The notes: generated from the letters alone by a model not told the origin. Numbered from the stretch's first letter, positions 1 to 22,502 are shown. The stretch is DNA of 32,348 nt from Promethearchaeota archaeon (GCA_048938895.1 JBHLLU010000046.1:1-32348); one strand, 5' to 3'. Numbers and translations are program-made.

Positions 1-38
1 GGGATTATTATTTATCTTTGTCTTCATATTCTATAATT

Positions 39-353
39 TTAAAGATTTTTCTTCTTCTTATTGTAAATTATAAAAATAGGCAATCCAATTAATAAAAGAA
101 TAATCCCTATACTCCCCATTATAAGTTCTATGTATAACCTAACCAATGGCCCATTATAAACTATTAAATCTTGATCATAAACAATATAATTCGGAAAGAA
201 CTCAACCAACATAATTACTTCTATTATCAAGACAAGAGAACCAGTTATAATTAAAACTAAACCAGAAGTGTATTTCCTTTTAATAAAATACCAACCGATT
301 ACCTGATCAATCTCTTTTTCTAAATCTTTCAATTTAATGTTAATAAAATTCAA
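39..353 (-). CDS. Small hypothetical membrane protein (two predicted TM helices, basic C-terminus)
   Basis: Two hydrophobic stretches (GLVLIITGSLVLIIEVIMLVEFF; LIMGSIGIILLLIGLPIFIIY) followed by KKKK. TTG start is uncertain. Confidence 0.55.
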   Translation of the reverse strand: MNFINIKLKDLEKEIDQVIGWYFIKRKYTSGLVLIITGSLVLIIEVIMLVEFFPNYIVYDQDLIVYNGPLVRLYIELIMGSIGIILLLIGLPIFIIYNKKKKNL

Positions 354-508
354 AGGAAGTTTATTTTACAGACTCTATAATTATATTAGACAGCTTTGTA
401 TATATTTGTATTTACTAAAGGGTTTATGATCCATAAAGCTTGGATAATCTGACGTTCTTGGCGGTAATTTTCTTTTAAATATTTATAATTGTTCTTGAAT
501 TCAGATAT

Positions 509-976
509 CTATTCAGGAATAATAACAGAAGGATCTTCTTTTATCTTATCTAGTACAATTTGAGTTTTTACTTCCTCAACTCCTGGAAGGTTTCGCAAAT
601 TCTCAATAAGTCCCATAGAATCTTGATGGTTGAGACATTTTGCCATAATAAATAAAGGATACTCCCCAGTAATTATATACGCATATTTGATCTTATCCAT
701 GAGTTCTATTTTCCTCTTAAGATCATCCAAAGGATATGAAGAATTTACTCTTAGTGATGCCATTACCATTTCACGGTATCCTAAATAACGACAATCTATA
801 AGTGTTACATACTGCTTTATTACTTTTTTTTCTTTTAAACGATTTATCCGCATCCTTATTGATGTTGGGGTTAATTGGATCTGTTTTTCAATATCACGAA
901 GCGATGCCTTGGCATTATCTTGTAGAATACTAAGAATTTGTTTGTCTAATTCGTCTAAATCTATGATTTCGGTCAT
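509..976 (-). CDS. Lrp/AsnC family transcriptional regulator
   Basis: N-terminal LDELDKQILSILQDNAKAS...IRMRINRLKEKKVI HTH and C-terminal RAM domain (ITGEY...PGVEEVKTQIVL). ATG at 976 preferred over the TTG at 988. Confidence 0.92.
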   Translation of the reverse strand: MTEIIDLDELDKQILSILQDNAKASLRDIEKQIQLTPTSIRMRINRLKEKKVIKQYVTLIDCRYLGYREMVMASLRVNSSYPLDDLKRKIELMDKIKYAYIITGEYPLFIMAKCLNHQDSMGLIENLRNLPGVEEVKTQIVLDKIKEDPSVIIPE

Positions 977-1012
977 AATTAAATCCAAATTTTGTAAGTT
1001 AAGAAATTATTA

Positions 1013-1170: not shown

Positions 1171-1241
1171 GAATAAAATAAATTATTATTTGTAAACAAA
1201 AAGTCATAAAAAAGTTTAAAAAAAAAAAAAGGTTGAAAAAA

Positions 1242-1478
1242 ATGGCTGAATCAGTATTAGAATCAGTATTCGATTATACTGGCTTAAAATGTCCTATGCC
1301 AGTATTGAAAACGAAGAAGGAATTAAAAAAGTTGAGTTCTGGTCAAATTATTAAGGTTATTGCCGATGATGTTGGAGCAAAAAAGGATATTCCCGCCCTG
1401 TTAAAGAAAATTGGCGACGAATTACTTGAAGTTAAAGAAGAAAACGGAAATATTGAGTTTACGATTAAAAAGACTTAG
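1242..1478 (+). CDS. tusA: TusA/SirA family sulfur carrier protein
   Basis: DYTGLKCPMP (CPxP motif), ADD..AKKDIP, about 78 aa. ATG at 1242 follows AAGGTTG. Confidence 0.92.
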   Translation: MAESVLESVFDYTGLKCPMPVLKTKKELKKLSSGQIIKVIADDVGAKKDIPALLKKIGDELLEVKEENGNIEFTIKKT

Positions 1479-2261: not shown

Positions 2262-2603
2262 ATGACAAACGATCTTGACACAATATATTTGTTTGGATTT
2301 AGTGCATTAGCAGGGAATCATCTAAGGAGATTATTACCCATTTTAAAGAGTCAACTCAAAAAAGAAAAGAAACTTGGGTTAGTTTTAATTCAAGATGGTG
2401 TAATAGGTATATCAACGAAAGGAAAAATACCCAAACAAGTAGAAGAATTGATTAATTTAGATGTTACGCTATTTGCTATGAATTCGGATATAAAAGCTAG
2501 AGGCATTGCTCCAGAATCGATTCATAATAAAATTAAGTCTATAGAATATGATGATCTTATAGATATTATAGATACTACTCCAAAAGTAATTTCTTGGATG
2601 TAG
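2262..2603 (+). CDS. dsrH: DsrH/TusB-like sulfur relay subunit
   Basis: LIQDGV...DIKARG...IEYDDLID...ISW motifs; AGGAGG SD. Confidence 0.85.
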   Translation: MTNDLDTIYLFGFSALAGNHLRRLLPILKSQLKKEKKLGLVLIQDGVIGISTKGKIPKQVEELINLDVTLFAMNSDIKARGIAPESIHNKIKSIEYDDLIDIIDTTPKVISWM

Positions 2604-2716
2604 ATTAAATTAAAAAAATTAATTAATAGATTTTTATAAAAATCTGGATAAACCCAGAAAAAATAGATAATATAAACAACAAATAGTAAAAAAAAAAAAA
2701 AAAGAAGGTGTCATAT

Positions 2717-3139
2717 ATGGCAGAACAAGAAACAATAAATTTTATTGTCAAGGATAAGTCATTCGAGAAATTCGCAATGATGGCTATCCTTGGATCAACA
2801 GGAGATGCCATGGATGTAAAAATGAATTTTTTCTTTACCTTTTGGGGTTTAAATCTTTTAACAAAGAATTATAAACCAAAAGTTGCTGGCATGCCAACCC
2901 CTATGAAAGGTATGGGTGCTAAGATTTTCAGAAAAAGAATGAAAAAATTTGGTATTGAAGATCCATGGGCTTTAATCAAAGACGGTGTCGAAAGTGGTAA
3001 TTTAAAGTTATATCCATGTCAAATGACAATGGATTTAATGGGGATTAAACACGAACAAATTGTCGACTTTGCAGAAGATCCTGTTGGAGCCGCCACATTC
3101 TTAGAAATGGCCAATGGTGGGAGAATAGTTAGTTTGTAA
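2717..3139 (+). CDS. DsrE2-like (DsrE/DsrF/DsrH-like family) sulfur carrier
   Basis: FFTFWGL, YPCQMTMDLMG and VGAATFL motifs. ATG 2717 after AAGGTG. Confidence 0.88.
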   Translation: MAEQETINFIVKDKSFEKFAMMAILGSTGDAMDVKMNFFFTFWGLNLLTKNYKPKVAGMPTPMKGMGAKIFRKRMKKFGIEDPWALIKDGVESGNLKLYPCQMTMDLMGIKHEQIVDFAEDPVGAATFLEMANGGRIVSL

Positions 3140-3182: not shown

Positions 3183-3746
3183 GTGATGGAAACGTCTGAT
3201 GTAAAAGAAGAATCAAGGGAATTTAAGACAGACGAAGATTTTGATAAAGATTTTTTTAAAAATATTGAGAGAAAATCTAATATTTGGCAGTGCATCCAAT
3301 GCGGAACATGTACCGCAAGTTGTGAAAGTGGAAGATGGACTGCCTTAAAGACTCGTTCGATTATTAGAAAAGTAGTCTTGGGAGATTTATCAGTATTAGA
3401 CGATCCAGATATTTGGCTCTGTACAACTTGTTATCAGTGTTATGAACGATGTCCGCGTGATGTAAGGCCTACTGATGTAATTATGGAATTGCGAAATTAT
3501 GCAACGAAAAGAGGAAATATTTCACCCAATCATAGGGCAGTTGTAGGTTATTTGAAGAATTTTGGACATGCTGTACCTATAAATGATGAGGTAAGAAAAC
3601 GAAGAGTCGAATTAGGATTAGAAGAATTACCTCCTACTGCATTTAGATTTAAGCAAGAGGGGGATGATAAAGATTTAAAAAATATTGAAGAGAAAATGTT
3701 TGATTTACCTCCTGTTAAGGAGGAAAAAGAGAAGGAGGAGACGTAA
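3183..3746 (+). CDS. hdrC: Heterodisulfide reductase subunit C
   Basis: CIQCGTCTASC and IWLCTTCYQCYERCPR two-[4Fe-4S] motifs; GHAVPIN. Confidence 0.93.
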   Translation: MMETSDVKEESREFKTDEDFDKDFFKNIERKSNIWQCIQCGTCTASCESGRWTALKTRSIIRKVVLGDLSVLDDPDIWLCTTCYQCYERCPRDVRPTDVIMELRNYATKRGNISPNHRAVVGYLKNFGHAVPINDEVRKRRVELGLEELPPTAFRFKQEGDDKDLKNIEEKMFDLPPVKEEKEKEET

Positions 3747-3749
3747 AAT

Positions 3750-4667
3750 ATGGTTAAAGAAAATACTTTTGCGTTCTTTTTAGGGTGTTTGATGCCAAAT
3801 CGATATCCGGCAATAGAAAAATCGACAAAATTTGTAATGGAAAAACTTGGATATGAATTATTAGATATGGAAAGAGCTACCTGCTGTCCAGCTCCAGGAG
3901 TTTTTCGATCATTTAACAAGGTAGACTGGATGGTTGCAGCTGCGAGAAATTTATGTATTGCCGAACAGATGGATGCTGACATATTAACAGTTTGTAATGG
4001 ATGTTTCGGAACACTCCAAGAAGTCAATAAACATTTAAAAGCTAATGAAGAACATCGTGAGATGGTCAATGAAAGGCTAAAGGAGATTGGGGATTATGAA
4101 TTTAAAGGGACTATTGACGTACGACATGTAATGGAAGTTCTAGGTTATGAAGTGGGACCTTGGGGTATTGAAGATCTCATCGTTAGAAAAGCGAATATTA
4201 AAGCAGCTATCCATTACGGTTGCCATTTCTTAAAACCGACCAGAATCAGAGAGATTGAAAGTTCTGAGGGACCAACAATTATAGAAGAATTTGTAGAAGC
4301 ATTAGGTGTCGAATCGGTAAGGTTTAAAGAACAATTAACATGCTGTGGTGCTGGTGGTGGAGTAAAAGCTTATGATGGAAATGCAAGTATGACGATTTTT
4401 GGAGAAAAAATGAAGAATATCGATGAGGTCAAGCCTGATATAATTCTTGATATTTGTCCATTTTGTCATTTGCAATTTGAGACAGGTCAAGATTATCTAA
4501 ACAAGAACAAAAGTTGTAATTATGATTATCCAGTTATTCATATCTCCCAACTTACTGCCTATTGTATGGGTATGGATCAAGAATTTATTGGTCTTCAGTA
4601 CCAATTAATGGGCAGAGATTATATCTTTGGGGGAGAAGAATTAAAAAAAGAAGAAGAGGCAGTTTAA
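3750..4667 (+). CDS. hdrB: Heterodisulfide reductase subunit B (methanogen-type)
   Basis: Two CCG domains: FFLGC, CCPAPG, CNGC, HYGCH, CCGAGGG, CPFCHLQF. Confidence 0.95.
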   Translation: MVKENTFAFFLGCLMPNRYPAIEKSTKFVMEKLGYELLDMERATCCPAPGVFRSFNKVDWMVAAARNLCIAEQMDADILTVCNGCFGTLQEVNKHLKANEEHREMVNERLKEIGDYEFKGTIDVRHVMEVLGYEVGPWGIEDLIVRKANIKAAIHYGCHFLKPTRIREIESSEGPTIIEEFVEALGVESVRFKEQLTCCGAGGGVKAYDGNASMTIFGEKMKNIDEVKPDIILDICPFCHLQFETGQDYLNKNKSCNYDYPVIHISQLTAYCMGMDQEFIGLQYQLMGRDYIFGGEELKKEEEAV

Positions 4668-4668
4668 A

Positions 4669-6696
4669 TTGACTATAAAAGAAGAAGTTAAAGAAACAGA
4701 AAATTTAGGGGAAAAGGCCGAAACTGAAGAAAGCGAAGAACCACGAATAGGTGTATTCGTATGTCACTGTGGACACAACATTGCCGGAACTGTGGACGTT
4801 GCTAAAGTTGCGGAATATGCTTCGAAATTACCAAATGTAGTGAAAGCTGAACACTATATGTTTATGTGTTCTAAGCCAGGAGTACAAATGGTAAAGGACT
4901 CCATAGAAGAACTTGGAGTAAATAGGACTGTAGTTGCTTCGTGTTCTAAAAATCAGCATGGCAAAACTTTTGCCAAAGCGATTGAAGAAGTTGGATTGAA
5001 CAAACATCGTCATCAACAAGTAAATATAAGAGAATACGATAGTTGGGTTCACCAAAAAGAAAAAGAAAAAGCAACTCAAAAGGCTATGAGGCTTGTCGAA
5101 GCAGGTGTGAATCGTTCAAGGAAGTTGGAAGATGTTGAAACAAGAAGAATACCAACTACCAAAGCTGCATTAGTTATCGGAGCAGGGATTGCTGGTTTAC
5201 GATCTGCATATGATATGGCAGAATTAGGAATTCCAGTAGTGTTAGTCGAAAAAGAATCTACAATAGGAGGACATATGACTCGATTAAATAAAACATTCCC
5301 AACTTTAGAATGTCCACAGTGTTCAATTTCGCCACTCACCAATGGTGTTGCAAATCACCCCTTAATAGATCTTTACACAAATGCCCAAATTAAAAGTGTT
5401 GAAGGCTCATTAGGGAATTTCGAAGTCGAAATCGAAATAAAACCCAGATATGTGAAAGATAACTGTACCTCTTGTGGTGAATGCGCAGCACATTGTCCTG
5501 TAGAAGTACCAAGCGAATGGGATATGGGAATGTCAATGAGAAATGCGATTTATAAAGCATATCCTCAGGCAATACCCGCTACATATGTTCGAGACAAAAA
5601 AAACTGTATTGAGTGTAATACATGTGTAAATGTCTGTCCAGTACAAGCCGTTGATTTTTCTATGGAAACTGAGACTAAAACCGTAAAAGTTGGCTCAATA
5701 ATAGTTGCTGCGGGGTATGATGAGTACGATCCTACTGAAATTGAACCTTATCATTATAGTCAAGAAGGATATGAAGATGTTATTACTCAACTAAAACTAG
5801 AAAGAATGTTATCACCAACTTCGCTTACGAATAGTCAGGTATTAAGACCATCTGATGGAAAAATTCCTGAAAGTGTGGTTATGATCCAATGTGTAGGCAG
5901 TCGAAATGATCAAGTAGGAAATAAGTATTGTACTGGTGTCTGCTGCAAGTTCGCTATTAAAAACGCAAGAATAATAAAAGAAATGTATCCTGATACTGAA
6001 ATGTCAATATGTTATATTGATATAAGAACTCCAGGATTAAACTTTGAAGAGTTATATAAATCTGCTCAAGAGATTGGAGTTAGATTTATCCGGGGGAGAC
6101 CATCTGAAATCATAAAAGATCCAATAACAGGTGAACTAAAAGTAATTGTTGAAGATACACTAAGCCAAACACCACTACAAATAGATGCTGATTTAGTAGT
6201 CCTTTCTGCTGCAATGGTTCCTCCAGAAGGAATTGGTCCACTTGGTTCAAAACTTCAAGTTCTAAGGTCAAAAGAAGGGTTTTTAAAAGAATTTCATATT
6301 AAAATGAATCCTACTCTTAGCAGCAAAGGAGGAATCTTTTTAGCTGGTGCGATTCAAGGACCTAAGGATATCTCTGAAACTGTTGCTCATGCTGGAGGTG
6401 CAGCTGCATTAGCAGCAGCTCCGTTAGTTAGAGGATATATCGAAAAAGAGATGCTAGTTCCTACGGTAGACTATGATTTATGTGTGAATTGTGGCCTCTG
6501 TAAAACGATATGTGCACCAGCAGCAATTACTGTTGATGAAAATGGAAAACCTATCATTAATGAGGTTGCATGTAAATCTTGTGGAATGTGTATGCCAGTA
6601 TGTCCTACAGGTGCAATTCAATTGAGAAATTTCACGGATGATCAATTATTAGATGAAATAATTGCCGTATCTGGTGGAGGTGCTGTGTGCGAATGA
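4669..6696 (+). CDS. hdrA: Heterodisulfide reductase subunit A (flavin-bifurcating type)
   Basis: RIGVFVCHCG, VIGAGIAG, KTFPTLEC, inserted and C-terminal ferredoxin domains, QCVGSR, GPKDI. TTG start. Confidence 0.96.
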   Translation: MTIKEEVKETENLGEKAETEESEEPRIGVFVCHCGHNIAGTVDVAKVAEYASKLPNVVKAEHYMFMCSKPGVQMVKDSIEELGVNRTVVASCSKNQHGKTFAKAIEEVGLNKHRHQQVNIREYDSWVHQKEKEKATQKAMRLVEAGVNRSRKLEDVETRRIPTTKAALVIGAGIAGLRSAYDMAELGIPVVLVEKESTIGGHMTRLNKTFPTLECPQCSISPLTNGVANHPLIDLYTNAQIKSVEGSLGNFEVEIEIKPRYVKDNCTSCGECAAHCPVEVPSEWDMGMSMRNAIYKAYPQAIPATYVRDKKNCIECNTCVNVCPVQAVDFSMETETKTVKVGSIIVAAGYDEYDPTEIEPYHYSQEGYEDVITQLKLERMLSPTSLTNSQVLRPSDGKIPESVVMIQCVGSRNDQVGNKYCTGVCCKFAIKNARIIKEMYPDTEMSICYIDIRTPGLNFEELYKSAQEIGVRFIRGRPSEIIKDPITGELKVIVEDTLSQTPLQIDADLVVLSAAMVPPEGIGPLGSKLQVLRSKEGFLKEFHIKMNPTLSSKGGIFLAGAIQGPKDISETVAHAGGAAALAAAPLVRGYIEKEMLVPTVDYDLCVNCGLCKTICAPAAITVDENGKPIINEVACKSCGMCMPVCPTGAIQLRNFTDDQLLDEIIAVSGGGAVCE

Positions 6697-7145
6697 GTGA
6701 TTGTGAAGCAATTGATGAAGGAATTCAAGAAAAAATACAAAATGTAGTAATTTTTATGTGTAATGAGTGTGGTCAAGGATCGGCAAATACTGCTGGAGTT
6801 GCTCGAATGGGTTATGATCCAGCTATAAGAATCGTTAGAGTTCAATGCACAGGACAAGTTGGTCCTATACAAATTATGGATGCCTTAAACAATGGTGCTG
6901 ATGCAGTTGCATGTGTAGGATGCTGCTTAGGAGCGTGTCATTTTTTCAATGGAAATATCTTATCAATGCATAGAATAAAATTGATGAAAAAGTTATTTAA
7001 AGAATTAGGCTATAGTGATCAATTTGTAAATCAATACACTTCTCGTGCTGCTGAGGGTGAAACAGCAGTTGGAGATTTTGAAGATATTGTGGAACGATTA
7101 TCAACAGCAATAAATGAAGAGGGGACTATAAAAGATGGATGTTAA
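6693..7145 (+). CDS. mvhD: MvhD/FlpD [2Fe-2S] adaptor subunit
   Basis: FMCNEC...RIVRVQCTG...GADAV..VGC..GACHF.NGN. ATG overlaps the hdrA stop (ATGA). Confidence 0.9.
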   Translation: MSDCEAIDEGIQEKIQNVVIFMCNECGQGSANTAGVARMGYDPAIRIVRVQCTGQVGPIQIMDALNNGADAVACVGCCLGACHFFNGNILSMHRIKLMKKLFKELGYSDQFVNQYTSRAAEGETAVGDFEDIVERLSTAINEEGTIKDGC

Positions 7146-8370
7146 AGTGTTTCAATTTAATGGTTGTAATAAATGCTTCAATGAATCTTTATTATTGAAG
7201 TTAGATTCGAATCTCAATGTAGAATATATCAAAGATCCTAAAACTTGGAAGGAAGAGAAAATAGAAACCGCTGTAATAACAGGTTATGTGCTCCCAACCG
7301 ATAAGATATTGCTTAAGAAGATAAAAACTAATGCAGATAGAGTTATCGCTTATGGTAGTTGCACTGTAAGTGGTGGAGTTTTTGCTTTAGCAAATCAGCA
7401 TGGGCATGAAATAACTCCTTTAAAGAACTTAGTCGAAAATATAACTGAAATTGAAGGATGTTTAGGAGAAGTTGAGGAGTTAAAATCAGTAATTAATGAA
7501 GAAGAACTACAAAAGCCAAAGAAACTATGTGATTTATGCACTAGAAGGGCCACCTGTGACTATTTAGATAAAGTAAACCGTCAAATTGAATTGGATGATG
7601 AGGAGACGTGTTTCAATGATTTAGGTTTTCTCTGTAATGGGTTTATTGCACGAGAATGTAAAGAGCGTTGTATTGATTATAATACACCATGTAGAGGCTG
7701 TAAACAATTAATTGAAAGATCAGGAATCCGTATGCTCGGTATGTTTGGAACACTCATGGGTAACATTGAAGTGGCTACTGAACATTCTGCTAAAGGCGCT
7801 ACAGACAAACTAGCTGATGAAGATGATGAAATAACAGAAAGTTTACCTGATATCCTTGGAAATTTCTTTAGATTTACATTAACTACTTCGGGTTTACCTA
7901 AAGGAAGAATTCCATCCACAGGTACTCTACTAGAAGATTTATTTACTGGAAGATTAATCGAAGAATTACCCTTGATAACTGGACTATTAGGAGGAGATAA
8001 ATCAATTTCACTTACACTTAAAATTATTGAATCCTATGAAAAAGCAAATGATATTCAAATTGGAGAACAGATAAAGAAATATAGAAAAGAGCTCTTAGAT
8101 TTAGAAGAAAAGTTGCATAAGGCTATAGATAAAGAAGATGCAGAACAATATAAGGAAATCACAGAGGAAATCCGAAAAATTGCAGGAAATATGAATTTAT
8201 CAAATGTATTTTTTGGTGGATTCAAATCAAAGATCCAAAAAGAAGGTAATTTTGAAGATTATAAAACCCACATTTTTGAAGTGGTTGAAGGAACGTATAA
8301 AAACGGTTCTGTAGAATATAGCATAGATTCTGAAGGAATTGTTAAAGAAATAAAAATCATGGAGGGATAA
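7135..8370 (+). CDS. MvhG-like hydrogenase small-subunit Fe-S protein with long C-terminal extension
   Basis: GCNKC, YGSCTVSGG, EGC, LCDLCTR, CF...GFLCNG...C...C...PCRGC, D..GNFFRFTL, then about 150 extra residues. Confidence 0.72.
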   Translation: MDVKVFQFNGCNKCFNESLLLKLDSNLNVEYIKDPKTWKEEKIETAVITGYVLPTDKILLKKIKTNADRVIAYGSCTVSGGVFALANQHGHEITPLKNLVENITEIEGCLGEVEELKSVINEEELQKPKKLCDLCTRRATCDYLDKVNRQIELDDEETCFNDLGFLCNGFIARECKERCIDYNTPCRGCKQLIERSGIRMLGMFGTLMGNIEVATEHSAKGATDKLADEDDEITESLPDILGNFFRFTLTTSGLPKGRIPSTGTLLEDLFTGRLIEELPLITGLLGGDKSISLTLKIIESYEKANDIQIGEQIKKYRKELLDLEEKLHKAIDKEDAEQYKEITEEIRKIAGNMNLSNVFFGGFKSKIQKEGNFEDYKTHIFEVVEGTYKNGSVEYSIDSEGIVKEIKIMEG

Positions 8371-8372
8371 AT

Positions 8373-10838
8373 ATGAGTTTTGAATTATTAAGGAAAGAGG
8401 TAATTGATGCGGGATTATGTCAAGGATGTGGATTATGTGCTGGTTCATGTAAACATATAGAAATGGATATTTTACGTCCGACATTAAAAGATTATTGTAT
8501 CCTTGAAAGAAATGGTCAGGACTGTGGTAAATGTTATCAAAGCTGTCCACAAGTAATTCAGAAGAGATTCGAACAAAGACAACCTAAAGCTGTATATTCA
8601 TTACGAAGTAAAGACTCCACAATATTAAAGAAAGCAGCAAGCGGAGGAGTAGTAACCACCCTAGCAAAAAATCTTCTAGAAAATGAGGAACTTGCCGAAA
8701 TTGTAATGGTTCAAGATGTTGATGATAAACCTCAAGCAGAGATTGTAACTGATCCCGATGAAGCAGTAGAGAAAGCTGGTGTTGTCTATGGACGCTCAGG
8801 TGTTTTAGAAAAATTAGTTAACGTTGTTGGTAAGACCTTCGAACCTATAGGTATTGTAGGAGTACCTTGTGAAATGCGAGGTGCTGCCGATCTAGAGAAA
8901 GAAATGAATAGAGAAATCCTAAAAATTGGTTTATTCTGCAATTCTCATATGCGAACAGAACAGACTGATAAGGGATTAATTTGTTCTCCATGTTGTAATG
9001 GTTGCCCATCAGGAGTAAATGCCCAAGGCTATATCTCTTTAATTAGACAAGGACAATATCAGGACGCTGTTGATTTAATTCGTGAAAATAATCCACTTCC
9101 TTCTATATGTGGAAGAATTTGTACTAATGAATGCGAGCATGGATGTACTTTAATTGGAGATGATCATCCTGTAGCAATTCGCGAATTAAAGAAATTTGTA
9201 ACAGAATGGGAAATTGAGCAATCTATAGAATTAAAATCAAAGAGTAAACCCAAGAAAAATGCAAAGAAAGTAGCAATAATAGGTTCTGGACCAGCAGGAT
9301 TGACAGCAGGATATTTTCTGAGAAGAATGGGGTATGCTCCAACCATTTTCGAAAAGTCAGACCAAACAGGAGGAATGTTGAGGTTTGGAGTACCACAATT
9401 TAGATTGCCTAATTATGTTTTAGATTATGATATAAATCGGATCAAGAATTCTGGAGTCGAAATTGTTCTTAATAAACCATTAGGACCAGAAATGACTATT
9501 GATGACTTAAAGAATGAAGGATACGAAGCTATATTCATAGCTACTGGGCAATATAAACCAAGAACATTACATTTAGAAGGAGAAGATTTACCTAATGTAC
9601 ATGTAGCTATTACATTTCTTATGGATAGAAAGTATCGCTACTGGGAAAACAAAGAAGAATTTAAGGGAAAAAGTATTGGAATAATTGGTGGAGGTCCTGT
9701 TGCCGTGGATGTTGCACAAACCGCTCTTAGATTAGGCGCTGAAAAAATTCATCTCGTCGATATCATGACTGAAGAACAACTTGAATTAACTCTAAAAGAA
9801 ATCCCTGAAAAAGAGCGAGAGTTTATGGAATATCACTTTACCACATCTACTTCGAAAATTACTAAAAAAGATGATGATAAGCTAGTGTTGAATTTTTATA
9901 AAATCAAATGGGGTGCTCCTGATGAGACTGGAAGAAGGTCTTTTGAAAAAATCAAGGATTCAGAATATGAAATTCCTATTGATTCGATTGTAATTGCTAT
10001 TGGCCAAGCTGTTGATTTTGACCAAATTGATATCGCTACGGATAATAAATTAGAAAAGGAACGTAATAAAATTAAAGTGAATGAAGTGACTTTCGAAACG
10101 AACATTCCAGGTGTATTTGCGGGAGGAGATATTGTAAACAACTCAAAAGCAGTAGCAATCGCAGCAATTGCGCATGGAAAAGAAGCAGCATTGTCTATTG
10201 ACAGGTACATAAAAGGTGAAAGTTTAATTGAAGGCAGATATAAGCAAGATAAAATGTTCTTTAGAGGTCCAAAAAAACCACCAAAAGATTACTCTCCAAA
10301 ACCAGAGACATTAAGCGAGGCAACTGAAGATATTGTTTGGAGTTTTGAAGAAGTTGAACAACAATTTAATGAGGAAATGGCTCTCCAAGAGGCACGTAGA
10401 TGCTTAAGTTGTAATCATTTCTGCTCCCATTGTCAAGATTTCCCTGCTATTTATTCTGATTTAACTGCAGGAGAAGTTGGATCTCAAGAAGGATTTACTA
10501 CTGTAGTAGTCTGGACTGATAGAGGGAAAGAAATTATTGATAATGGGATCCAGAATGGTCTATTTGAAGAAGGAGAAGTAAATAGTGAAGAATTAAATGA
10601 AGCAATCAATCTTAAATCGAAAAGAGAGCTCTTAACTTTCGAAAAAACACCTAGGCAGCAAGTATTGGATTACATTACTCTTCAAGGACCGACTACGATT
10701 ACCAACATGGCTAAGAAATTAAATTTAGATCCTAAAAAAGTACGATATGAAGCCCTTCGGTTAGCACAAATGATGATGGTTGAGATGAAAGTTGACACTG
10801 GAATGCAAGAACCAATTTTTACTTTAATATGTGATTAA
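8373..10838 (+). CDS. FrhB/FdhB-like protein with inserted GltD/NfnB-like FAD oxidoreductase and C-terminal winged helix
   Basis: Ferredoxin and FrhB motifs (SGGVVT, VGVPC, IGLFC), then SPCCNGCP...CGRIC...CE...IGSGPAG...GVFAGGD...EARRCLSC, then the FrhB C-part (CSHCQDF..SDLTAGEVGS..GFTTVVVWTDRG), then a wHTH-like tail. Confidence 0.85.
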   Translation: MSFELLRKEVIDAGLCQGCGLCAGSCKHIEMDILRPTLKDYCILERNGQDCGKCYQSCPQVIQKRFEQRQPKAVYSLRSKDSTILKKAASGGVVTTLAKNLLENEELAEIVMVQDVDDKPQAEIVTDPDEAVEKAGVVYGRSGVLEKLVNVVGKTFEPIGIVGVPCEMRGAADLEKEMNREILKIGLFCNSHMRTEQTDKGLICSPCCNGCPSGVNAQGYISLIRQGQYQDAVDLIRENNPLPSICGRICTNECEHGCTLIGDDHPVAIRELKKFVTEWEIEQSIELKSKSKPKKNAKKVAIIGSGPAGLTAGYFLRRMGYAPTIFEKSDQTGGMLRFGVPQFRLPNYVLDYDINRIKNSGVEIVLNKPLGPEMTIDDLKNEGYEAIFIATGQYKPRTLHLEGEDLPNVHVAITFLMDRKYRYWENKEEFKGKSIGIIGGGPVAVDVAQTALRLGAEKIHLVDIMTEEQLELTLKEIPEKEREFMEYHFTTSTSKITKKDDDKLVLNFYKIKWGAPDETGRRSFEKIKDSEYEIPIDSIVIAIGQAVDFDQIDIATDNKLEKERNKIKVNEVTFETNIPGVFAGGDIVNNSKAVAIAAIAHGKEAALSIDRYIKGESLIEGRYKQDKMFFRGPKKPPKDYSPKPETLSEATEDIVWSFEEVEQQFNEEMALQEARRCLSCNHFCSHCQDFPAIYSDLTAGEVGSQEGFTTVVVWTDRGKEIIDNGIQNGLFEEGEVNSEELNEAINLKSKRELLTFEKTPRQQVLDYITLQGPTTITNMAKKLNLDPKKVRYEALRLAQMMMVEMKVDTGMQEPIFTLICD

Positions 10839-11431: not shown

Positions 11432-13351
11432 TCAAGCGAAGTGCTTTTCAATTAATGTTCCAAGACTCTCCCAATTTTCCGATACTGAACAAGATTCTTC
11501 TAGATTTTCAATCAGAATTTGGTAATGGTTATCAAATTCTTCAATGAGAGTCAAAAGTTTTTGATGAAAAATTGTCAAGTTTTCTTTTACAATTAAAGCA
11601 AATATAATTTGGTTTGTTGTGTTAAAATCGAAGATTATTTTCCTATCTCCATGATCTATTATCTTGATTAATCTTTCAGCTTGGATTACCTCTTTTAAAA
11701 TAGTCATCATTCCAACCAAACCACCTGAGATTAGAAGAGAATCATTTTTTTTCTCGATTTCCATAAATGGATAATCATAAAGCAGAACTCCTGAATTACA
11801 AAAGATGTAAATTTGTAGTAGGAAGTCTGTCCAGTTAATTATTGGTAATCTTAATATGAATTTTGAACCCTCATTTCTTCCTTCGGATTCAACAAGAATT
11901 TGACCTCCATGTAAATCGATAATTTCTTTTGAAAAATATAATCCCAAATAGAAATTTTTTAGATTTGATTTAGTTCTTGATGCAAAAAGTGTTTTTTTCT
12001 CTTTTTCATTTAAATTCACACTTTCATTTTTTAGTATAATTTCAGCAAAATCGTTATTTTGCTGTAAATATATGGAAATCTCACTTTTTTTTGAAGCATT
12101 ATTAATAATATGAAGCAGAATATCCTTAATCACCTGTTTTATTCTATGCTTATCAATTTCAGCATACAAATCTTCAGCCAAATCTAAATTCATTGTAAAA
12201 TTTAGCTTTTTTATTTTTATCATTGTCTCATCTACAGATTCAGTAATGGTTTTAACAAGACTCTCAATTTGTCTTTTTAGCCTTATTTTCTCAGTTTCTA
12301 TTCTAGAAATATCAACTATCCGCCCAACTAAGTTCATAGATTTTTTTCCTCCTTTTTTTATCATTTCTAAAAGTTTTATAGCGTTTTGGTCTAATTTGTC
12401 TTTATATGAATCTAAAAGTGTCTGTGATGCATCAAACATATCATTTAATGGTGCTTTCATTTCTTCTGAAGTTTGAGCTGTTAATTTTTTTTTCATATCA
12501 TCAATTTTCCTTAACCGTTCGTTCTCCCCTCTAATGATATTGTCCACTAATTTCCTTTCAGTTATATCTTTCATCAAAACTTGAACATATTTTTCGTTTC
12601 TAAATTTTAAAGAAGAAAAGATAGCTTCTATAGTAGAACTATTAGCTTTATCATTTATAAATTCAAATTCTACAATTTCACTCAATTCAAAATTAATAAC
12701 ATTATAAATCAACTCATCACACGAATCTATGACTTCTTTAGATTTTGGGAAGAGATCAAAAAAATTCTCCCCTATAAAATCTTCTTTTGATCTTTTTAGA
12801 TATAATTCTGCAGCAGTATTACAATCAAAAATATTCTTATTCGCTTCAAGTAAAAATACCGAAAATTGAAGATTATCAACAAAATTTCTAAAAATTTCTT
12901 CTGAATCTTTAAAGGAGTGTTCAATTTTTTTTTTATCTGTAATATCGCAAATTATATCTATTAATGCAGGTTGTCCATTAAAAGAAAGAACAAAAGCATT
13001 ACTGAATTCAAAAATCTTTTCTTCTGTCGAATTAAGATTAGTATATAGAGCTTCAAATTTACTTATTGTATTATAATTTATTTTATTAAAACAACAAGAT
13101 TCACAAATAATATTTTTATTCATCATCACCTCAAAACAAAGATTTCCAATCTGATTAGTTCCAAATTCATCTTCAGCTTTCTTATTCATATACAATATTT
13201 TCATATCTTTGGAAATAATAACAATTAAATCATTACTATTTGATAAGATAAAATTCAACAGCGCTTCAGATTCTTTTATTGGATTCTCTGGATTCTTGAA
13301 TTTTATTATACTTCGGTTTATATGTTCGTTCAATATTCCATTCTCCACCAA
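11432..13351 (-). CDS. PAS-PAS histidine pseudokinase with C-terminal longin-like domain
   Basis: Two PAS/PAC domains ending in DIT. H-box reads TSEEMKAPL (no His). N, G1 and G2 boxes are degenerate, but HGGQILVESEG..GSKF is retained. C-terminus IYIFCNSGVLLY...DSLLISGGL...IDHGDRKIIF. Confidence 0.82.
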   Translation of the reverse strand: MVENGILNEHINRSIIKFKNPENPIKESEALLNFILSNSNDLIVIISKDMKILYMNKKAEDEFGTNQIGNLCFEVMMNKNIICESCCFNKINYNTISKFEALYTNLNSTEEKIFEFSNAFVLSFNGQPALIDIICDITDKKKIEHSFKDSEEIFRNFVDNLQFSVFLLEANKNIFDCNTAAELYLKRSKEDFIGENFFDLFPKSKEVIDSCDELIYNVINFELSEIVEFEFINDKANSSTIEAIFSSLKFRNEKYVQVLMKDITERKLVDNIIRGENERLRKIDDMKKKLTAQTSEEMKAPLNDMFDASQTLLDSYKDKLDQNAIKLLEMIKKGGKKSMNLVGRIVDISRIETEKIRLKRQIESLVKTITESVDETMIKIKKLNFTMNLDLAEDLYAEIDKHRIKQVIKDILLHIINNASKKSEISIYLQQNNDFAEIILKNESVNLNEKEKKTLFASRTKSNLKNFYLGLYFSKEIIDLHGGQILVESEGRNEGSKFILRLPIINWTDFLLQIYIFCNSGVLLYDYPFMEIEKKNDSLLISGGLVGMMTILKEVIQAERLIKIIDHGDRKIIFDFNTTNQIIFALIVKENLTIFHQKLLTLIEEFDNHYQILIENLEESCSVSENWESLGTLIEKHFA

Positions 13352-13356
13352 GATTA

Positions 13357-14910
13357 TTATGTAATATTTAAATTTAATTCATTCATCCATTCATTAATAG
13401 TTGGGGGCTCAACGAGCTCAAAAAAAATTATAAATTTACTTCCTTTAGTATAGTCACCTTCAATTTTATTTTGTACGCAAATATAACCTTTGTATTTATC
13501 CACAATTTTCTTTACTAATGATAGTCCTAATCCCATTCCATATCCGTTTTTTTCTGTTTTTTCAGTTCTTTGAAAAATATTTTTTTTAATTTCGGGTGGT
13601 ATACCTCTTGCGTTGTCTATTAATTCAACTTTAAGATATTCATTCCCATGCTTTCGTACTTTTGAGAAATATATTGAAATCTCTATAATTGAGCAATCAT
13701 TATGCAATACCGAGTTTATTAGGATATTATCAAAAATCTCTTGTAAGAAATCGTTGGCCCTGATGTATATAGGTTTTTCAAAATGAAAAACTTCGATTTT
13801 AATTCTTTTATTCTGAAATCCATTAGTAATGTAGTCTATTGATCTTCTTAATACATCTCTGACATCCATCGTTGTCAAGTCTTGTCCAGTTCCTTCAATT
13901 TCAGAAATTCGCCTGACATTAAAAGTTAGCTTTGCTGCTCTTTTAACTTGTTCTTTAGCAATATTAACTATTTCTGAGATGTTACTCTTAAATTTAATCC
14001 CATTTAATTTATAAGCTATTAATTCAAGAGAAGAATTTATTATCTGAAGAATATTATTCATATCATGGGTAAACAAGTCTTTGAGAAAATTCGCTTGTTT
14101 GTAGGCTTTCTGATATTTCTTTTCTGATTTTATTAAACTGTTTTCTGTTTTTTTTCTATATGTTATATCTCTTATTATCTCAATTACCGCGGGTTCACCC
14201 TTGAAATTTAATATTGGAGAGCATTTATATTCCAAATATTTTTTTTCTTTTGTCTGAGAATTTATGAAATGTTTTTCACAGGTAATATTATTATTATAAT
14301 TTTTCATTAATTTGTTAAAAGAACAATATTCACAGGTGTCATCTCTATTCATTAAAACTTTATAGCACAACTCTCCTATATGGAAATTTCCAAAAATCTT
14401 TTTTGCTTTTTGGTTCATGTATAAGATTCTTAAGTTTTTCGAAATAACAATTACAGATTCATCAATATTTGATAATATTAGATTTAACTGTTCTTCCGAT
14501 TGTCTAATTTCGATTTTGTGTTTTTCTTGTTCAGTGATATCTCTTCCAACTTTTACAATTTGCTCAACTATTCCTTTATTTGTTTTGACTGGATATGCTA
14601 TCAACTCTAAAAATATATCTTTTCCATCTTTGTAATGAGTGTGTATGGATTTGCTTAAATTTCCTGTTTTTATAACATCTATTAAAGGACATTTACATTC
14701 TGGAGGTTTACAAATATGATTTAAACCATGTGTGAATTTATAACATTTCTTCCCAATAGCATCGTCTTTAGAAGTTTTGTATTTCTCACAGAATGACTTG
14801 TTTACATCAAGTATATTGTAACTCGTATCCAAAATAGTTATTTCCTCATAAATTGAATCAATTATTAATCGTAGATCTTCAATTTTGTAATTATTTTCTA
14901 TTTCACTCAT
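13357..14910 (-). CDS. Cytoplasmic PAS-PAS sensor histidine kinase
   Basis: Two Cys-rich PAS domains, H-box FTHDMNN, N-box FDNILIN, G1 IDNARGI, G2 GMGLGL. Confidence 0.92.
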   Translation of the reverse strand: MSEIENNYKIEDLRLIIDSIYEEITILDTSYNILDVNKSFCEKYKTSKDDAIGKKCYKFTHGLNHICKPPECKCPLIDVIKTGNLSKSIHTHYKDGKDIFLELIAYPVKTNKGIVEQIVKVGRDITEQEKHKIEIRQSEEQLNLILSNIDESVIVISKNLRILYMNQKAKKIFGNFHIGELCYKVLMNRDDTCEYCSFNKLMKNYNNNITCEKHFINSQTKEKKYLEYKCSPILNFKGEPAVIEIIRDITYRKKTENSLIKSEKKYQKAYKQANFLKDLFTHDMNNILQIINSSLELIAYKLNGIKFKSNISEIVNIAKEQVKRAAKLTFNVRRISEIEGTGQDLTTMDVRDVLRRSIDYITNGFQNKRIKIEVFHFEKPIYIRANDFLQEIFDNILINSVLHNDCSIIEISIYFSKVRKHGNEYLKVELIDNARGIPPEIKKNIFQRTEKTEKNGYGMGLGLSLVKKIVDKYKGYICVQNKIEGDYTKGSKFIIFFELVEPPTINEWMNELNLNIT

Positions 14911-16093: not shown

Positions 16094-16543
16094 CTATGGT
16101 ATAGTGCTTATACTGCTTATATTTTCGTCTTGATCAGCTTCCATGAAATGTTTATATAATTTATGAATAGTCTGATTTAATTCAAATTGAATCACACCCA
16201 AATTTAAAAATAGTGGAAACATGAGTGCAAGCCTTATGTCTTCAGTCACATATTCAAGATGGATCACAAAAGCTTCGTTATCAAGCTGATCTCCTGCCTG
16301 AATAGAAATTTGTTTAATAAAATTTTCTTCTCTAATTATTTCAACACTATTTTCTGCTAAGGTAACAATACTAGCGCATATCGCTGCAATACTTTGGAAA
16401 AATTCATCATCTTCATTATTATTAGCTCCTTCTATTGTTATAATAAAGCCATCTTCTGTAAATAAAGTGGAACATACTATACCAGTTCTTTCTCTAAATG
16501 ATTTTAAAATATTTTGAATTTTACTTTCTCTTAGATTAGCCAT
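16094..16543 (-). CDS. Roadblock/LC7 (MglB-like) domain protein
   Basis: GIVCSTLFTEDGFII...IAAICASIVTLAE...NLGVIQFEL; overlaps the GTPase stop by 8 nt. Confidence 0.85.
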   Translation of the reverse strand: MANLRESKIQNILKSFRERTGIVCSTLFTEDGFIITIEGANNNEDDEFFQSIAAICASIVTLAENSVEIIREENFIKQISIQAGDQLDNEAFVIHLEYVTEDIRLALMFPLFLNLGVIQFELNQTIHKLYKHFMEADQDENISSISTIP

Positions 16544-17186
16544 TTTGAACTATTCCCTCCCTCTTGATTGTATTATTTTCGTTTGTCCCGTTTAAAATAA
16601 TTTTGCTTACATGAATAATCGCATCTTTTATTCCAATATTATGTTTAGCAGAAGTTGAGTATACTTGCTCTCCAATCATATTTGTAATCACTTCACATCC
16701 ACAATAATCATCTCTATCTGCTTTATTGGCAATTATCCTTATGGGGATATTTTGTCCTAAAACCGCACGAGTTTCTTCTAATATCACTAAACCGTTTCCT
16801 ATATTCACCAAATCACAACCATCAATTAGAAGAATTACTCCATCATTTCCTTTTGCTAGAATTTTTCGAACCGCAGAAAACTGCAATTGCCCAGGACACC
16901 CCTTTAGCTCTATATTTAACGCATGCCAACCCGAATATTCATCTTTATCTCTTAAATATTCAGTCTTATTCATAATCACACCTTCTGTTTTAAAATCCAA
17001 ATTAGGTCTAACCCAAACTAACCTCGCTAGGTCAAATCCTGTTGTAGTATGAGTTTTTTCATCATTATAGGCATAAGCTAATTTTTTCTCAACAGATATA
17101 GCTTTATCATCAAGAGTGTGAATCAATGTCGTTTTACCTGAATTAAAAAAACCTGTTATAAAAATTTTAATTTTATCCCTCTCCAA
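16536..17186 (-). CDS. Small GTPase, MglA/CvnD-like
   Basis: G1 GFFNSGKTT, G2 TTTGFD, G3 GCPGQ, G4 NKAD, G5 SAK. TTG start. Confidence 0.9.
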   Translation of the reverse strand: MERDKIKIFITGFFNSGKTTLIHTLDDKAISVEKKLAYAYNDEKTHTTTGFDLARLVWVRPNLDFKTEGVIMNKTEYLRDKDEYSGWHALNIELKGCPGQLQFSAVRKILAKGNDGVILLIDGCDLVNIGNGLVILEETRAVLGQNIPIRIIANKADRDDYCGCEVITNMIGEQVYSTSAKHNIGIKDAIIHVSKIILNGTNENNTIKREGIVQNG

Positions 17187-20807: not shown

Positions 20808-21563
20808 ATGATGGGATTTGAACAAGAGACTAAAAAAGAAGAGAAAAGTTCTAATCAAGATAAACAACGGATTGGGTTACTTGTTTCTGAAGAAACTAAA
20901 ACTAGATGGCAAGATTTTGCGAATACTCATAATGTTACGACTATTTCTAAGTTAATTAGAATGGCAGTTGACTTTTATATCGATTATATCTTAAAAACGC
21001 CATCAGAAAGGGATTTTGCCCAACTTTCTCATAATCTAAGGGAATCATTAACATCCATTAAAGGCTTTTCCCAGTTAATAATAGAAAAATTTTCTAACAA
21101 ATTAGATCCTGATATCCTACTGAGAATTAAGGAAATATATAGCCAAAGTCTCTTACTTGAGAATAATATAAATGAAATTCAAAATTATAAAGAATTTGAA
21201 AATATCAAATATGATATTTTAATTATTGAAGATGATGCACCAACTATTATGGTTTTGACGGACTTTTTTGAGCTTAAAGGATATGTTTGTAAGGGTGTTT
21301 TAAGTGGTATTAAGGGATTAGAAGTATTGAACAGGAGCACGCCAAAATTAATATTGTTAGATGTATTTTTAAATGATATTAGTGGATATGAAATTTGTTA
21401 TAAAATCAAATCAAATGAAAATCTTAAAGAAATTCCCGTTTTTTACATTACTGCAATACCAGAATCAGAAGTTGTTGAAAAAGTAAAAAAAACAGGAGCA
21501 GATGGATTTTTTCTAAAACCTTTTAATTTTTCTCAATTCGAAATCTTATTAGATTATTTATAA
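20808..21563 (+). CDS. Response regulator: RHH-like, HisKA dimerisation and REC domains, no ATPase domain
   Basis: RIGLLVSEETKTRW...ISKLIRMAV; SHNLRESLTSIKGF; IIEDD...LILLD...ITA...KPF. Confidence 0.88.
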   Translation: MMGFEQETKKEEKSSNQDKQRIGLLVSEETKTRWQDFANTHNVTTISKLIRMAVDFYIDYILKTPSERDFAQLSHNLRESLTSIKGFSQLIIEKFSNKLDPDILLRIKEIYSQSLLLENNINEIQNYKEFENIKYDILIIEDDAPTIMVLTDFFELKGYVCKGVLSGIKGLEVLNRSTPKLILLDVFLNDISGYEICYKIKSNENLKEIPVFYITAIPESEVVEKVKKTGADGFFLKPFNFSQFEILLDYL

Positions 21564-21815
21564 ACATCATAAGATATTATTATTTTTATTAAAGAGTGTC
21601 TTAAAACTCTAAAAAATTCTAAAATATATTCAAAATATTTGTTTTTAAATAGAAATTATCAAGTAAACAAGTAATTTAAAAAGCACTTCTCCCTATTTTG
21701 TAAAAGTTTTTTATTAAGGAAAAGAATATTATACATAAGAAAAATATTTGTGTATGTGTTGTAAATCACTACAAATGAAAAGAAATCAGATGAGGTTAAA
21801 AGGATAGGTATATTA

Positions 21816-22499
21816 GTGCCTGAAGATACTAAAAATAAATGGGAAAAATTCGTCGATGAAAATGAATTTACTACTATTTCAATGCTAATACGAAAAGCAG
21901 TTAATTTTTATATCGATTCTAAACCCAAAATCTCGCTTATTAATAACATTTCAAAGTTTACACATGATTTGAAAGAACCTCTTACTTCAATAAAAGGTTT
22001 TTCTCAATTAATACTTGAACACGAATCAGATAAGATAAACCCAAATATATTATTAAGAATTAAAGAAATTTATGCTCAAAGTGTATTTCTTGAAAATAAA
22101 ATTAATTTTATTATTAATGAGTTCAAACCTCAAAGCCAAACATATGATATTTTAATTATTGAAGACGATTCTTCAACAATCATGGTTTTAACTGATTTTT
22201 TTGATATTAAAGGATTTTCTTCATTCGGTGTCACAACAGGGAATAAGGGATTAGAAGAATTAAAAAGAATAACCCCTAAACTAATACTATTAGATATTAT
22301 TTTACCAGATATTAGTGGTTATGAAGTTTGTAAAAAGATTAAATTGGTTGATAGATTTAAACATATACCCATTTATTATATATCAGCAATCCCAGAATCG
22401 GAAGTTAGTGGAAAATTACAAGAAACTGGAGCGGAGGGATTCTTACGTAAACCATTTAATTTTCCTGATTTTAAAATTCTAATGGAATATTTAAATTAA
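21816..22499 (+). CDS. Paralogous RHH-HisKA-REC response regulator (true start may be upstream)
   Basis: THDLKEPLTSIKGF; IIEDD...LILLD...ISA...KPF. Homology to the paralog continues upstream of the GTG. Confidence 0.87.
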   Translation: MPEDTKNKWEKFVDENEFTTISMLIRKAVNFYIDSKPKISLINNISKFTHDLKEPLTSIKGFSQLILEHESDKINPNILLRIKEIYAQSVFLENKINFIINEFKPQSQTYDILIIEDDSSTIMVLTDFFDIKGFSSFGVTTGNKGLEELKRITPKLILLDIILPDISGYEVCKKIKLVDRFKHIPIYYISAIPESEVSGKLQETGAEGFLRKPFNFPDFKILMEYLN

Positions 22500-22502
22500 T
22501 TT

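Follow-up and report, generated by a model that had tools for sequence, protein, structure and literature searches.

The window analysed here is a stretch of 32,348 nucleotides from a Promethearchaeota archaeon (GCA_048938895.1, JBHLLU010000046.1:1-32348). It carries, as the last gene of an Hdr operon, the open reading frame (ORF) that is the subject of this work. By its sequence, the 821-residue product belongs to the FrhB family, with a two-cluster ferredoxin domain, a core binding flavin adenine dinucleotide (FAD) as well as one [4Fe-4S] cluster, and a winged-helix tail. The FrhB core is interrupted by a GltD/NfnB-type flavoprotein cassette. The parts of the protein are as follows.

8373..10838, plus strand: target ORF, FrhB protein with nested cassette, 821 amino acids, open in translation table 11
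8373..8567, plus strand: N-terminal ferredoxin domain, residues 1-65, with 8 cysteines for two [4Fe-4S] clusters (Pfam Fer4 families, residues 10-60)
8586..8942, plus strand: FrhB core, first part, residues 72-190 (FrhB_FdhB_N; FrhB_FdhB_C profile 4-48; GG(F/V)VT at 91-95; C166 and C189)
8943..8978, plus strand: entry linker, residues 191-202 (low confidence in the predicted structure, see below)
8979..10421, plus strand: circularly permuted GltD/NfnB-type cassette, residues 203-683 (Pfam, NCBIfam PRK12771, alignments to Protein Data Bank (PDB) entries, VIA-align)
10422..10637, plus strand: FrhB core, second part, residues 684-755 (FrhB_FdhB_C profile 70-148; C684, C687 and DLTAGEVGS)
10638..10838, plus strand: C-terminal winged-helix tail, residues 756-821, and stop codon (Pfam HVO_A0114, below cut-off)

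The FrhB core and the cassette nested in it

Pfam searches recovered the FrhB core in separate pieces. FrhB_FdhB_N matches residues 74-146 (E 1.3e-13; 51.4 bits, cut-off 22). FrhB_FdhB_C scores 66.1 bits (cut-off 23.3) split over two stretches, residues 159-199 (profile positions 4-48 of 150; 24.1 bits when the first 200 residues were scanned alone) and residues 657-737 (profile positions 70-148; 50.8 bits when the tail was scanned alone), and profile positions 49-69 have no match in the protein. Between these pieces lie Fer4_20 (residues 191-284, profile 14-112 of 113, 84 bits) and the whole of Pyr_redox_2 (residues 298-602, profile 1-291 of 291, E 1e-27, 97.7 bits). The split is no accident of one sequence: the same four Pfam families were found in all of the 120 best database homologues, referred to below as the long forms, and 118 of these measure 817-825 residues. 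Two solved structures align in register to both halves of the core: 8rja_E (residues 3-174 with 5-195, and 682-742 with 271-331) and 3zfs_C (residues 72-174 with 7-112, and 684-750 with 192-256).

The structural description of FrhB names Cys 104, 134, 192 and 195 as the [4Fe-4S] ligands (Mills et al., PMC3591093). They align to C166, C189, C684 and C687 of the target protein. None of these four varies among the 120 long forms or the 13 sequences of an alignment with short and uninterrupted relatives. By this alignment the insert sits between the second (C189) and the third (C684) ligand of the host's own predicted cluster. The last cassette cysteine, C680, is only four residues from C684, so the cassette cluster and the host cluster would have to be neighbours. 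In total 20 cysteines are invariant in the 120 long forms, among them C16, C19, C22, C26, C42, C51, C54 and C58 of the ferredoxin domain, and so are G91 and G92 of the FrhB FAD helix.

An AlphaFold2 model of the 821-residue protein was built from an alignment of 96 rows (mean predicted local distance difference test score, pLDDT, 86.4; predicted template modelling score 0.80). Segments with pLDDT below 50 are confined to residues 191-202, 632-636 and 646-653, which correspond to the entry linker and parts of the return linker. In VIA-align comparisons, the F420-reductase chain 8riu_B covered both FrhB halves in a single superposition (model 1..755 against chain 7..349; Z 28.7, root-mean-square deviation (rmsd) 2.9 Angstrom, 271 residues aligned). 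Both halves were also spanned by 8rja_E (Z 27.8, 289 aligned) and 7np8_A (Z 24.1, 252 aligned). The model therefore predicts that the two halves form one FrhB fold around the insert. The cassette itself superposed on 9bov_A (Z 40.5), 9n5v_A (40.4), 8oh5_C (39.5) and NfnB 4ylf_B (35.6).

These results bear on an original prediction made from the sequence of the window, which had described an FrhB-like protein split by a whole GltD-like flavoprotein. All the motifs that it listed are at the positions given: IGLFC at residues 185-189 (nucleotides 8925-8939), SPCCNGCP at 205-212 (8985-9008), EARRCLSC at 673-680 (10389-10412), and, after the cassette, CSHCQDF at 684-690, DLTAGEVGS at 696-704 and TVVVWTDRG at 710-718. 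It had expected a discontinuous FrhB C-domain flanking Fer4_20 and Pyr_redox_2, which the two Pfam pieces show, and it had staked the idea on the segment after the GltD module aligning to the FrhB C-domain (as it does to profile positions 70-148, 3zfs_C and 8rja_E) and on a reconstituted FrhB fold in the model, which 8riu_B indicates. The Pfam split, the homologue alignment and the fold superposition all agree on a nested insertion and not an end-to-end fusion. A pyridine-nucleotide flavoprotein module is present and intact, with its eight cluster cysteines invariant in all long forms. The module was called a complete GltD-like unit; its completeness holds, since all eight cluster cysteines and both dinucleotide motifs are there, but its order is not canonical, EARRCLSC being the N-terminal motif moved to the end.

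This rearrangement is visible in the alignments. NCBIfam PRK12771 matches residues 202-687 (E 4e-121). The cluster cysteines are C207, C211, C246, C250, C254, C258, C677 and C680; C204 and C208 are each kept in 113 of 120 long forms only. The FAD motif GSGPAG lies at 304-309 and the NAD motif GGGPVA at 439-444, with D463 after it. A return linker (residues 617-655) is followed by the relocated N-terminal helix and C677/C680. In HMMER alignments, the N-terminal helix and first CxxC of NfnB (4ylf_B residues 14-43, 5jca_L residues 6-45) pair with residues 652-681, and NfnB from residue 45 onward (PCxxxCP...) pairs with residues 205 onward. The cassette is, on these alignments, circularly permuted relative to canonical NfnB/GltD. 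It interrupts an iron-sulfur host, starts with PCxxxCP and ends with EAxRCLxC.

The tail matches Pfam HVO_A0114 over residues 743-816 at 20.6-23.3 bits, below the cut-off of 27.6. It is modelled as three helices and a beta hairpin, with pLDDT 83-94 except at the last residue. A winged helix-turn-helix kept across long, short and uninterrupted forms, together with an Lrp/AsnC gene divergently upstream of the operon, could indicate a redox-sensing regulator whose tail binds DNA while the redox domains sense NADH. We find this hardly credible, because the Pfam match is below cut-off, five clusters and two flavins go far beyond the needs of a sensor, and solved relatives such as 8riu_B use C-terminal extensions for oligomer contacts.

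Distribution of the cassette and of its FrhB host

The target protein was scored against 1.84 billion representative proteins and the best 150 matches were classified. Only two are full-length proteins of the same architecture (P0121, 56% identity; P0122, 46%); four are fragments of such proteins and one is a short form. The remaining 143 are other proteins of 458-1510 residues that match only residues ~200-690, at 34-44% identity. Residues ~203-683 thus form a cassette that recurs in many hosts, and the genome of the window contains two such hosts besides the target. One (L002 964-3741, G000:C115) encodes a 925-residue protein in which the cassette, 54-56% identical to that of the target and carrying the same VD(I/L)xTEE motif, has an HdrC-like dicluster domain on one side and two CCG (HdrB-like) domains on the other; its orthologues of ~920-930 residues are found in many genomes of the family. 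The other (L003 1219-3267, G000:C125) encodes a 682-residue polyferredoxin of the DmsB type that also has a GltD cassette nested in it (35% identical), and immediately follows a gene for a molybdopterin oxidoreductase. In a FastTree phylogeny of 80 cassettes rooted at the midpoint, the FrhB-hosted cassettes and the L002 cassette formed one clade (support 0.998), with P0127, another HdrC/CCG-hosted cassette, as sister. This suggests that the cassette may have been exchanged, in either direction, between FrhB and HdrC/CCG hosts within the lineage.

Nested cassettes of this kind have been described in other hosts. StnC (StnABC, Sporomusa ovata, PDB 8OH5) and NfnA of Bfu-type NfnABC (9BOV, 9N5U/9N5V) carry the same permuted cassette inside a larger iron-sulfur protein. 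Its boundaries there, StnC 102-566 and 9bov_A 102-569, correspond to residues 205-683 of the target, 9n5u_A likewise, and the cassettes are 34-37% identical to that of the target (Z 38.7-40.5). In StnC, the domain is described as oxidising NADPH and feeding a cluster chain without bifurcating (PMC10482914). The host of StnC/NfnA is, however, NuoG-like or formate-dehydrogenase-like in a HydBC-type (Bfu) complex, while the target host is FrhB in an Hdr operon. Type III HdrA of anaerobic methanotrophic archaea (ANME-1 HdrA9-11) is similar in another way, since there a protein of the Hdr complex has one of its iron-sulfur domains interrupted by a ~500-residue NfnB-like module; the accounts of it propose that the module brings NAD(P)H into Hdr (PMC12054007, PMC9012536). 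Its host is the inserted ferredoxin domain of HdrA in methane-metabolising archaea, whereas here, in an Asgard archaeon, HdrA is ordinary and the host is an FrhB-type donor subunit. No description of an FrhB-hosted cassette was found in the literature, in a search that did not extend to supplements (including those of Asgard genome papers) or subscription-only papers. The nested permuted GltD cassette is already known from other hosts; new here are the circular permutation of the FrhB-hosted cassette and its shared boundaries, the FrhB fold rebuilt in the model, the acidic residue in 119 of 120 long forms, the natural series described next and the fusion of MvhG with an MvhA vestige described further below.

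Among 400 Asgard genomes searched, ~65 hold a near full-length match to the long form: 57 in the family of the window, 6 in a second family of its order, 1 in a third, and another, G073, in an unrelated family. Partial matches at the ends of contigs were seen in ~10 further Asgard genomes. Beyond the order, apart from G073, only the cassette part matches. The G073 copy lies on a 10,210-nucleotide contig (L051, G073:C137) with a target of 87% identity and a whole operon 83-94% identical to that of the window, and may represent a mis-binned contig or a recent transfer. Two tandem long-form copies were seen in L048 1665-6890 (G140:C357), where the N-terminal part of the downstream copy matches as residues 1-149 and 157-199, which may reflect a frameshift or a gap. 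The orthologue at G281:C175:23394-25838 has one in-frame TAA.

Uninterrupted orthologues (P0336-type) have 343 residues, are 36% identical and contain the same ferredoxin domain and winged-helix tail, with ~17 residues between IGLFC and CxxC. They were found in 7 of the 400 genomes, all in another family. Short forms of 366-399 residues (19 clusters) are without the flavoprotein but retain cassette remnants, CTLIGDxHPVxIxELKxFVTEWE (equivalent to residues 258-283) and FxEIE...LQEGKxCxSC (residues 656-680). Because of these remnants, the short forms are deletion derivatives and not ancestors. Their loci, encoding 380-403 residues, are:

L037 6887-8029 (G260:C4): short form, in the one G260 locus examined at the same operon position
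G202:C10:50206-51342: short form
G252:C203:1955-3148: short form, in a genome that has both short and long form

Three other genomes guessed to hold short forms, G183, G204 and G209 (best E ~1e-107 to 1e-110), proved on inspection not to do so.

The Hdr operon and its hydrogenase-derived scaffold

The genes of the cluster upstream of the target ORF, and the divergent regulator, are listed here.

509-988, minus strand: Lrp/AsnC regulator, divergent, upstream of the operon
1233..1478, plus strand: TusA-like sulfur carrier, 81 amino acids, first gene of the cluster (Pfam TusA PF01206, 85.7 bits, cut-off 28.6)
1411-1872, 1850-2245 and 2262-2603, plus strand: three DsrE/DsrF/DsrH (TusD/C/B)-like genes (Pfam DsrE, DsrE and DsrH; NCBIfam tusD, tusC and tusB matches below or near cut-offs)
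2708..3139, plus strand: DsrE2-like protein (Pfam DrsE_2, 82.5 bits; NCBIfam SulfCarrDsrE2 below cut-off)
3183..3746, plus strand: HdrC (TIGR03290, 178.5 bits, cut-off 160)
3750..4667, plus strand: HdrB (TIGR03288, 371.7 bits, cut-off 345)
4669..6696, plus strand: HdrA, 675 amino acids, with FAD domain and several 4Fe-4S motifs (Pfam Fer4 families, FAD/Pyr_redox N-terminal motifs)
6687..7145, plus strand: MvhD, [2Fe-2S] connector to HdrA (Pfam FlpD PF02662, 108.9 bits)
7135..8370, plus strand: MvhG-like small subunit (residues 1-255) fused to a putative [NiFe] large-subunit vestige (residues 265-411) (sequence, Foldseek, VIA-align, hhalign)

Intergenic distances from HdrB to the target ORF are -11 to +2 nucleotides. 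The target closes a conserved HdrC-HdrB-HdrA-MvhD-(MvhG-like) operon, in which no catalytic hydrogenase is encoded. In 14 long-form loci, picked from the ~65 to span genera, these five genes lie directly upstream in all 13 with an upstream flank, and DsrE2 and Tus genes are present in the 9 of 9 that reach further (L043 without a TusB match at the threshold used). In the 18 other loci extending as far as HdrA, its orthologue at this position shows 58-94% identity. The operon is also present in G138 and G143, two genomes each closed in a single contig. The uninterrupted orthologue follows HdrC-HdrB-HdrA-MvhD-MvhG-like in 5 of 5 loci examined. The sulfur-relay set at the head of the operon (TusA, DsrE/F/H, DsrE2) hints that HdrBC may act on a carrier-bound persulfide or disulfide. 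A sigma-70 promoter scan, with a model unsuited to archaea, gave 46 sites against 45.5 expected, which is at chance, and so were the terminators.

In the MvhG-like protein, MvhG 9sw2_E/5odc_E match by sequence over residues 93-255, and 5odi_E/5odc_E are the best Foldseek matches (E 2e-7). This part has 12 invariant cysteines, enough for three clusters, and none lies beyond residue 189. Residues 265-411 are free of cysteine, and their model superposes on [NiFe] large subunits: FrhA 6qgt_A (Z 13.3, rmsd 2.3, 146 aligned, VIA-align wide), MvhA 5odc_F (Z 11.6, rmsd 2.2, 143 aligned, chain 40..398), 4kl8_L (Z 12.4) and 5aa5_C (Z 12.1). Profile comparison of the family with the genome's own large subunit by hhalign gave E 5e-4 at a probability of 31.6%, with the nickel motif RICGIC opposite GLLGGD; the same region matched a second large subunit (L057) weakly (probability 1.8%, E 0.028), and a protein atlas gave scores of 0.83-0.85 for the C-terminal half, a weak lead only, which hhalign and the VIA-align superpositions then supported. 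The protein looks like MvhG fused to a dead, cysteine-free remnant of the large subunit, that is, a putative hydrogenase-derived scaffold without a catalytic site. Because the cysteine-free region superposes on large subunits, and real [NiFe] large subunits are encoded elsewhere in the same genome, the operon appears to keep the scaffold without the catalytic site.

A comparable arrangement is known from Elp-Hdr, where ElpB, which is of the FrhB type, a truncated ElpA without cofactor and a homologue of MvhD are described as standing in for Mvh on Hdr (PMC12350162). ElpB (ElpABC-HdrABC, M. marburgensis, 8RVU) and FdhB (Fdh-Hdr, 7BKB) are, like the target, FrhB-family subunits accompanied by an MvhD homologue and a dead donor-derived scaffold; the target matches 8rvu_E over residues 682-741 and 7bkb_E over residues 79-189. 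The gutted MvhG/MvhA scaffold parallels ElpA, the cofactor-less FdhA remnant of Elp-Hdr. In Elp, however, F420H2 is used at an FrhB-type site that is intact, and the scaffold is a truncated FdhA, while the target has an NADH-type cassette and the scaffold is MvhG with a vestigial MvhA. The original prediction that the chain may act as electron input to Hdr in place of a hydrogenase fits this operon and the Elp-Hdr analogy.

The target could also be a stand-alone enzyme unrelated to Hdr, for instance an NADH:ferredoxin oxidoreductase, with its operon position reflecting co-regulation only. The cassette does occur in the many unrelated hosts described above and twice more in this genome, and the ferredoxin domain at the N-terminus could dock soluble ferredoxin. 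This explanation seems distinctly improbable to us. The gene order does not vary across families, even where the MvhG-like neighbour is no more than 32-39% identical; between HdrB and the target ORF, each start codon overlaps the preceding stop codon or lies within 1-3 nucleotides of it; and FrhB-type subunits are proven donor modules of Hdr in Elp-Hdr and Fdh-Hdr.

Elsewhere in the window, a small GTPase-like ORF lies at 16536-17186 on the minus strand (GTP_EFTU match below cut-off). Positions 11432-14910 and 20808-28751 are dense in signalling genes, including two response regulators and a kinase of 2,082 residues with HisKA/HATPase_c and many PAS domains (PAS_9 alone: 10 stretches). Two PAS-rich sensor ORFs (639 and 517 residues, minus strand) were judged from their translations alone.

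The probable electron donor and the proposed role of the complex

A preference for NAD over NADP is usually recognised in Rossmann folds by an acidic residue at the end of the second strand together with the loss of two arginines. All five solved NADPH enzymes carry YRR(T/S)xxEM(P/T)A after this strand, including StnC and NfnA, which retain YRR..EMPA, while the target has VDIMTEEQLEL. At position 463, 116 of the 120 long forms have D, 3 have E and 1 has Y (Asp/Glu in 119); the single Y belongs to P0122, which retains YRR. The fingerprint therefore points to a preference for NADH over NADPH. The cassette FAD might alternatively behave like the b-FAD of NfnB and form a second bifurcation site, as in the two bifurcating flavins proposed for ANME-1 HdrA-NfnB fusions (PMC9012536), and the cassette is indeed 34% identical to NfnB (Z 35.6). 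We regard this as very unlikely, because none of the 11 genes of the cluster is NfnA-like, each having another assignment by Pfam or NCBIfam. The NADPH motif of NfnB, YRR(T/S)xxEMPA, is likewise missing from the target.

The F420 side of the protein is less favourable. In FrhB, the F420 ring is described as adjoining S209/V210 and the IGKGK turn of a three-stranded sheet, residues 148-172 (Mills et al., PMC3591093), which falls between cluster ligands C134 and C192. The equivalent segment of MtFsr, residues 204-253, was named 'the lid' (Jespersen et al., PMC10229431); MtFsr residue 253 aligns to residue 681 of the target. The lid/IGKGK segment is absent from the target, where C189-C684 holds the cassette, and the uninterrupted orthologues have only their ~17-residue loop there. 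The best fold matches, the F420-reductase subunits of 'Ca. Ethanoperedens' carbon monoxide dehydrogenase and Fwd (8RIU_B, 8RJA_E) and the N-terminal half of Fsr (7NP8/7NPA), share the target's layout, a two-cluster ferredoxin domain at the N-terminus followed by an FAD/[4Fe-4S] domain, but keep a lid of ~50-75 residues between the second and third cluster ligands. In the fold comparison, ~60-80 residues of each solved F420 module were unaligned. The position of FrhB S209, S or C in the solved F420 enzymes, is residue 701 in the target. Of the 120 long forms, 114 have E there and 6 have D; all 15 short forms have E, D or Q, and all 13 uninterrupted forms have F. V702 (FrhB V210) is kept. An F420 site on the target protein is thus doubtful on the present alignments.

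This matters for a different explanation, in which the protein is a subunit for two donors or works as an internal transhydrogenase: F420(H2) would still react at the FrhB flavin and NAD(P)(H) at the cassette, so that Hdr is fed from both pools or F420H2 is equilibrated with NAD(P)+ along the cluster chain that the two sites share. The genome encodes F420 biosynthesis (CofH, 440 bits, cut-off 374; CofD, 306, cut-off 257; CofE, 279, cut-off 181), the FAD-helix motif and all four cluster ligands of FrhB are invariant, the closest solved FrhB-type folds (8riu_B, 8rja_E, 7np8_A) are all F420 enzymes, and two flavins would be wired through three clusters in one chain. We nevertheless consider it rather unlikely. 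The segment beside the F420 ring (FrhB 148-172; MtFsr 204-253) is exactly what is replaced, the lid was already cut short in the uninterrupted orthologues, the S209 equivalent departs from S/C in long and uninterrupted forms alike, and the fold alignment leaves ~60-80 residues of the solved F420 modules unpaired. Moreover, F420 (about -340 to -350 mV) and NAD (-320 mV) are nearly isopotential, so that a transhydrogenase with five clusters would gain little over a simple hydride-transfer enzyme. Of the original prediction as a whole, the nesting, the pyridine-nucleotide site and, judged by synteny, the role as input to Hdr hold up, while the possible F420 site is unsupported as it was put forward, and an F420H2:NAD(P) transhydrogenase becomes the less likely reading. 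The nucleotide fingerprint favours NADH over NADPH.

The explanation that we prefer, and towards which the balance tips slightly, is that the target protein serves one Asgard order as the NAD(H) port, or electron-input subunit, of an HdrABC-MvhD complex that lacks a hydrogenase. NADH would reduce the FAD of the cassette. Single electrons would then pass from this FAD through the two cassette clusters to the FrhB cluster, on through the two N-terminal clusters and the three MvhG-like clusters to the [2Fe-2S] of MvhD, and finally to the bifurcating FAD of HdrA. HdrA would split them between ferredoxin and, in these organisms without methanogenesis, a disulfide or persulfide acceptor at HdrBC, which may be carried by the co-encoded TusA/DsrEFH/DsrE2, and the whole reaction may run in reverse. 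The cassette would have taken the place of the F420 lid, NAD(H) being either an added donor or the replacement of an earlier one.

Several points weigh against the NAD(H) port. GGGPVA (GxGxxA) is not the classical NADH fingerprint, and the specificity turns on one acidic residue and the loss of YRR. The FrhB flavin motif is strictly conserved, and the function of that flavin is unexplained by such a port. The organism makes F420, and F420H2 could still be a donor. The short forms, in 3 of 154 genomes of the order, lack the flavoprotein at the same place in the operon, so the cassette is dispensable in some lineages. The physical association with Hdr is argued from synteny and analogy only; a complex prediction with the MvhG-like protein and short-form FrhB of G260 scored 0.01 against a mark of 0.32, which speaks neither for nor against binding.

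A wider proposal, which we put forward only tentatively and hold to be doubtful as a whole, is that Lokiarchaeia-type Asgard archaea possess an unrecognised flavin-based bifurcating or confurcating enzyme made of HdrABC-MvhD, a gutted Mvh scaffold, in which MvhG is joined to a metal-free remnant of MvhA, and an NADH-rewired FrhB. It would couple NADH, ferredoxin and a disulfide or persulfide bound to the sulfur relay (TusA/DsrEFH/DsrE2), and the FrhB flavin might be a third port, for F420 or another hydride carrier. If so, the closest archaeal relatives of eukaryotes would have a redox hub independent of hydrogen.

At one operon position, nature offers an uninterrupted host, a host with the cassette and a host from which the cassette was deleted. 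The series shows in what way a loop between two ligands of one cluster can take up redox modules, and provides ready-made constructs for probing an FrhB fold without the F420 lid. In many anaerobes, electron bifurcation centres on Hdr complexes, whose donor decides what the organism can live on. The energy metabolism of Asgard archaea has been argued mainly from genomes, in which Hdr-Mvh genes are usually read as hydrogen-linked. If the NAD(H) port proposed here is true, Hdr would be tied to the pyridine-nucleotide pool rather than to H2, and linked to sulfur-carrier proteins.

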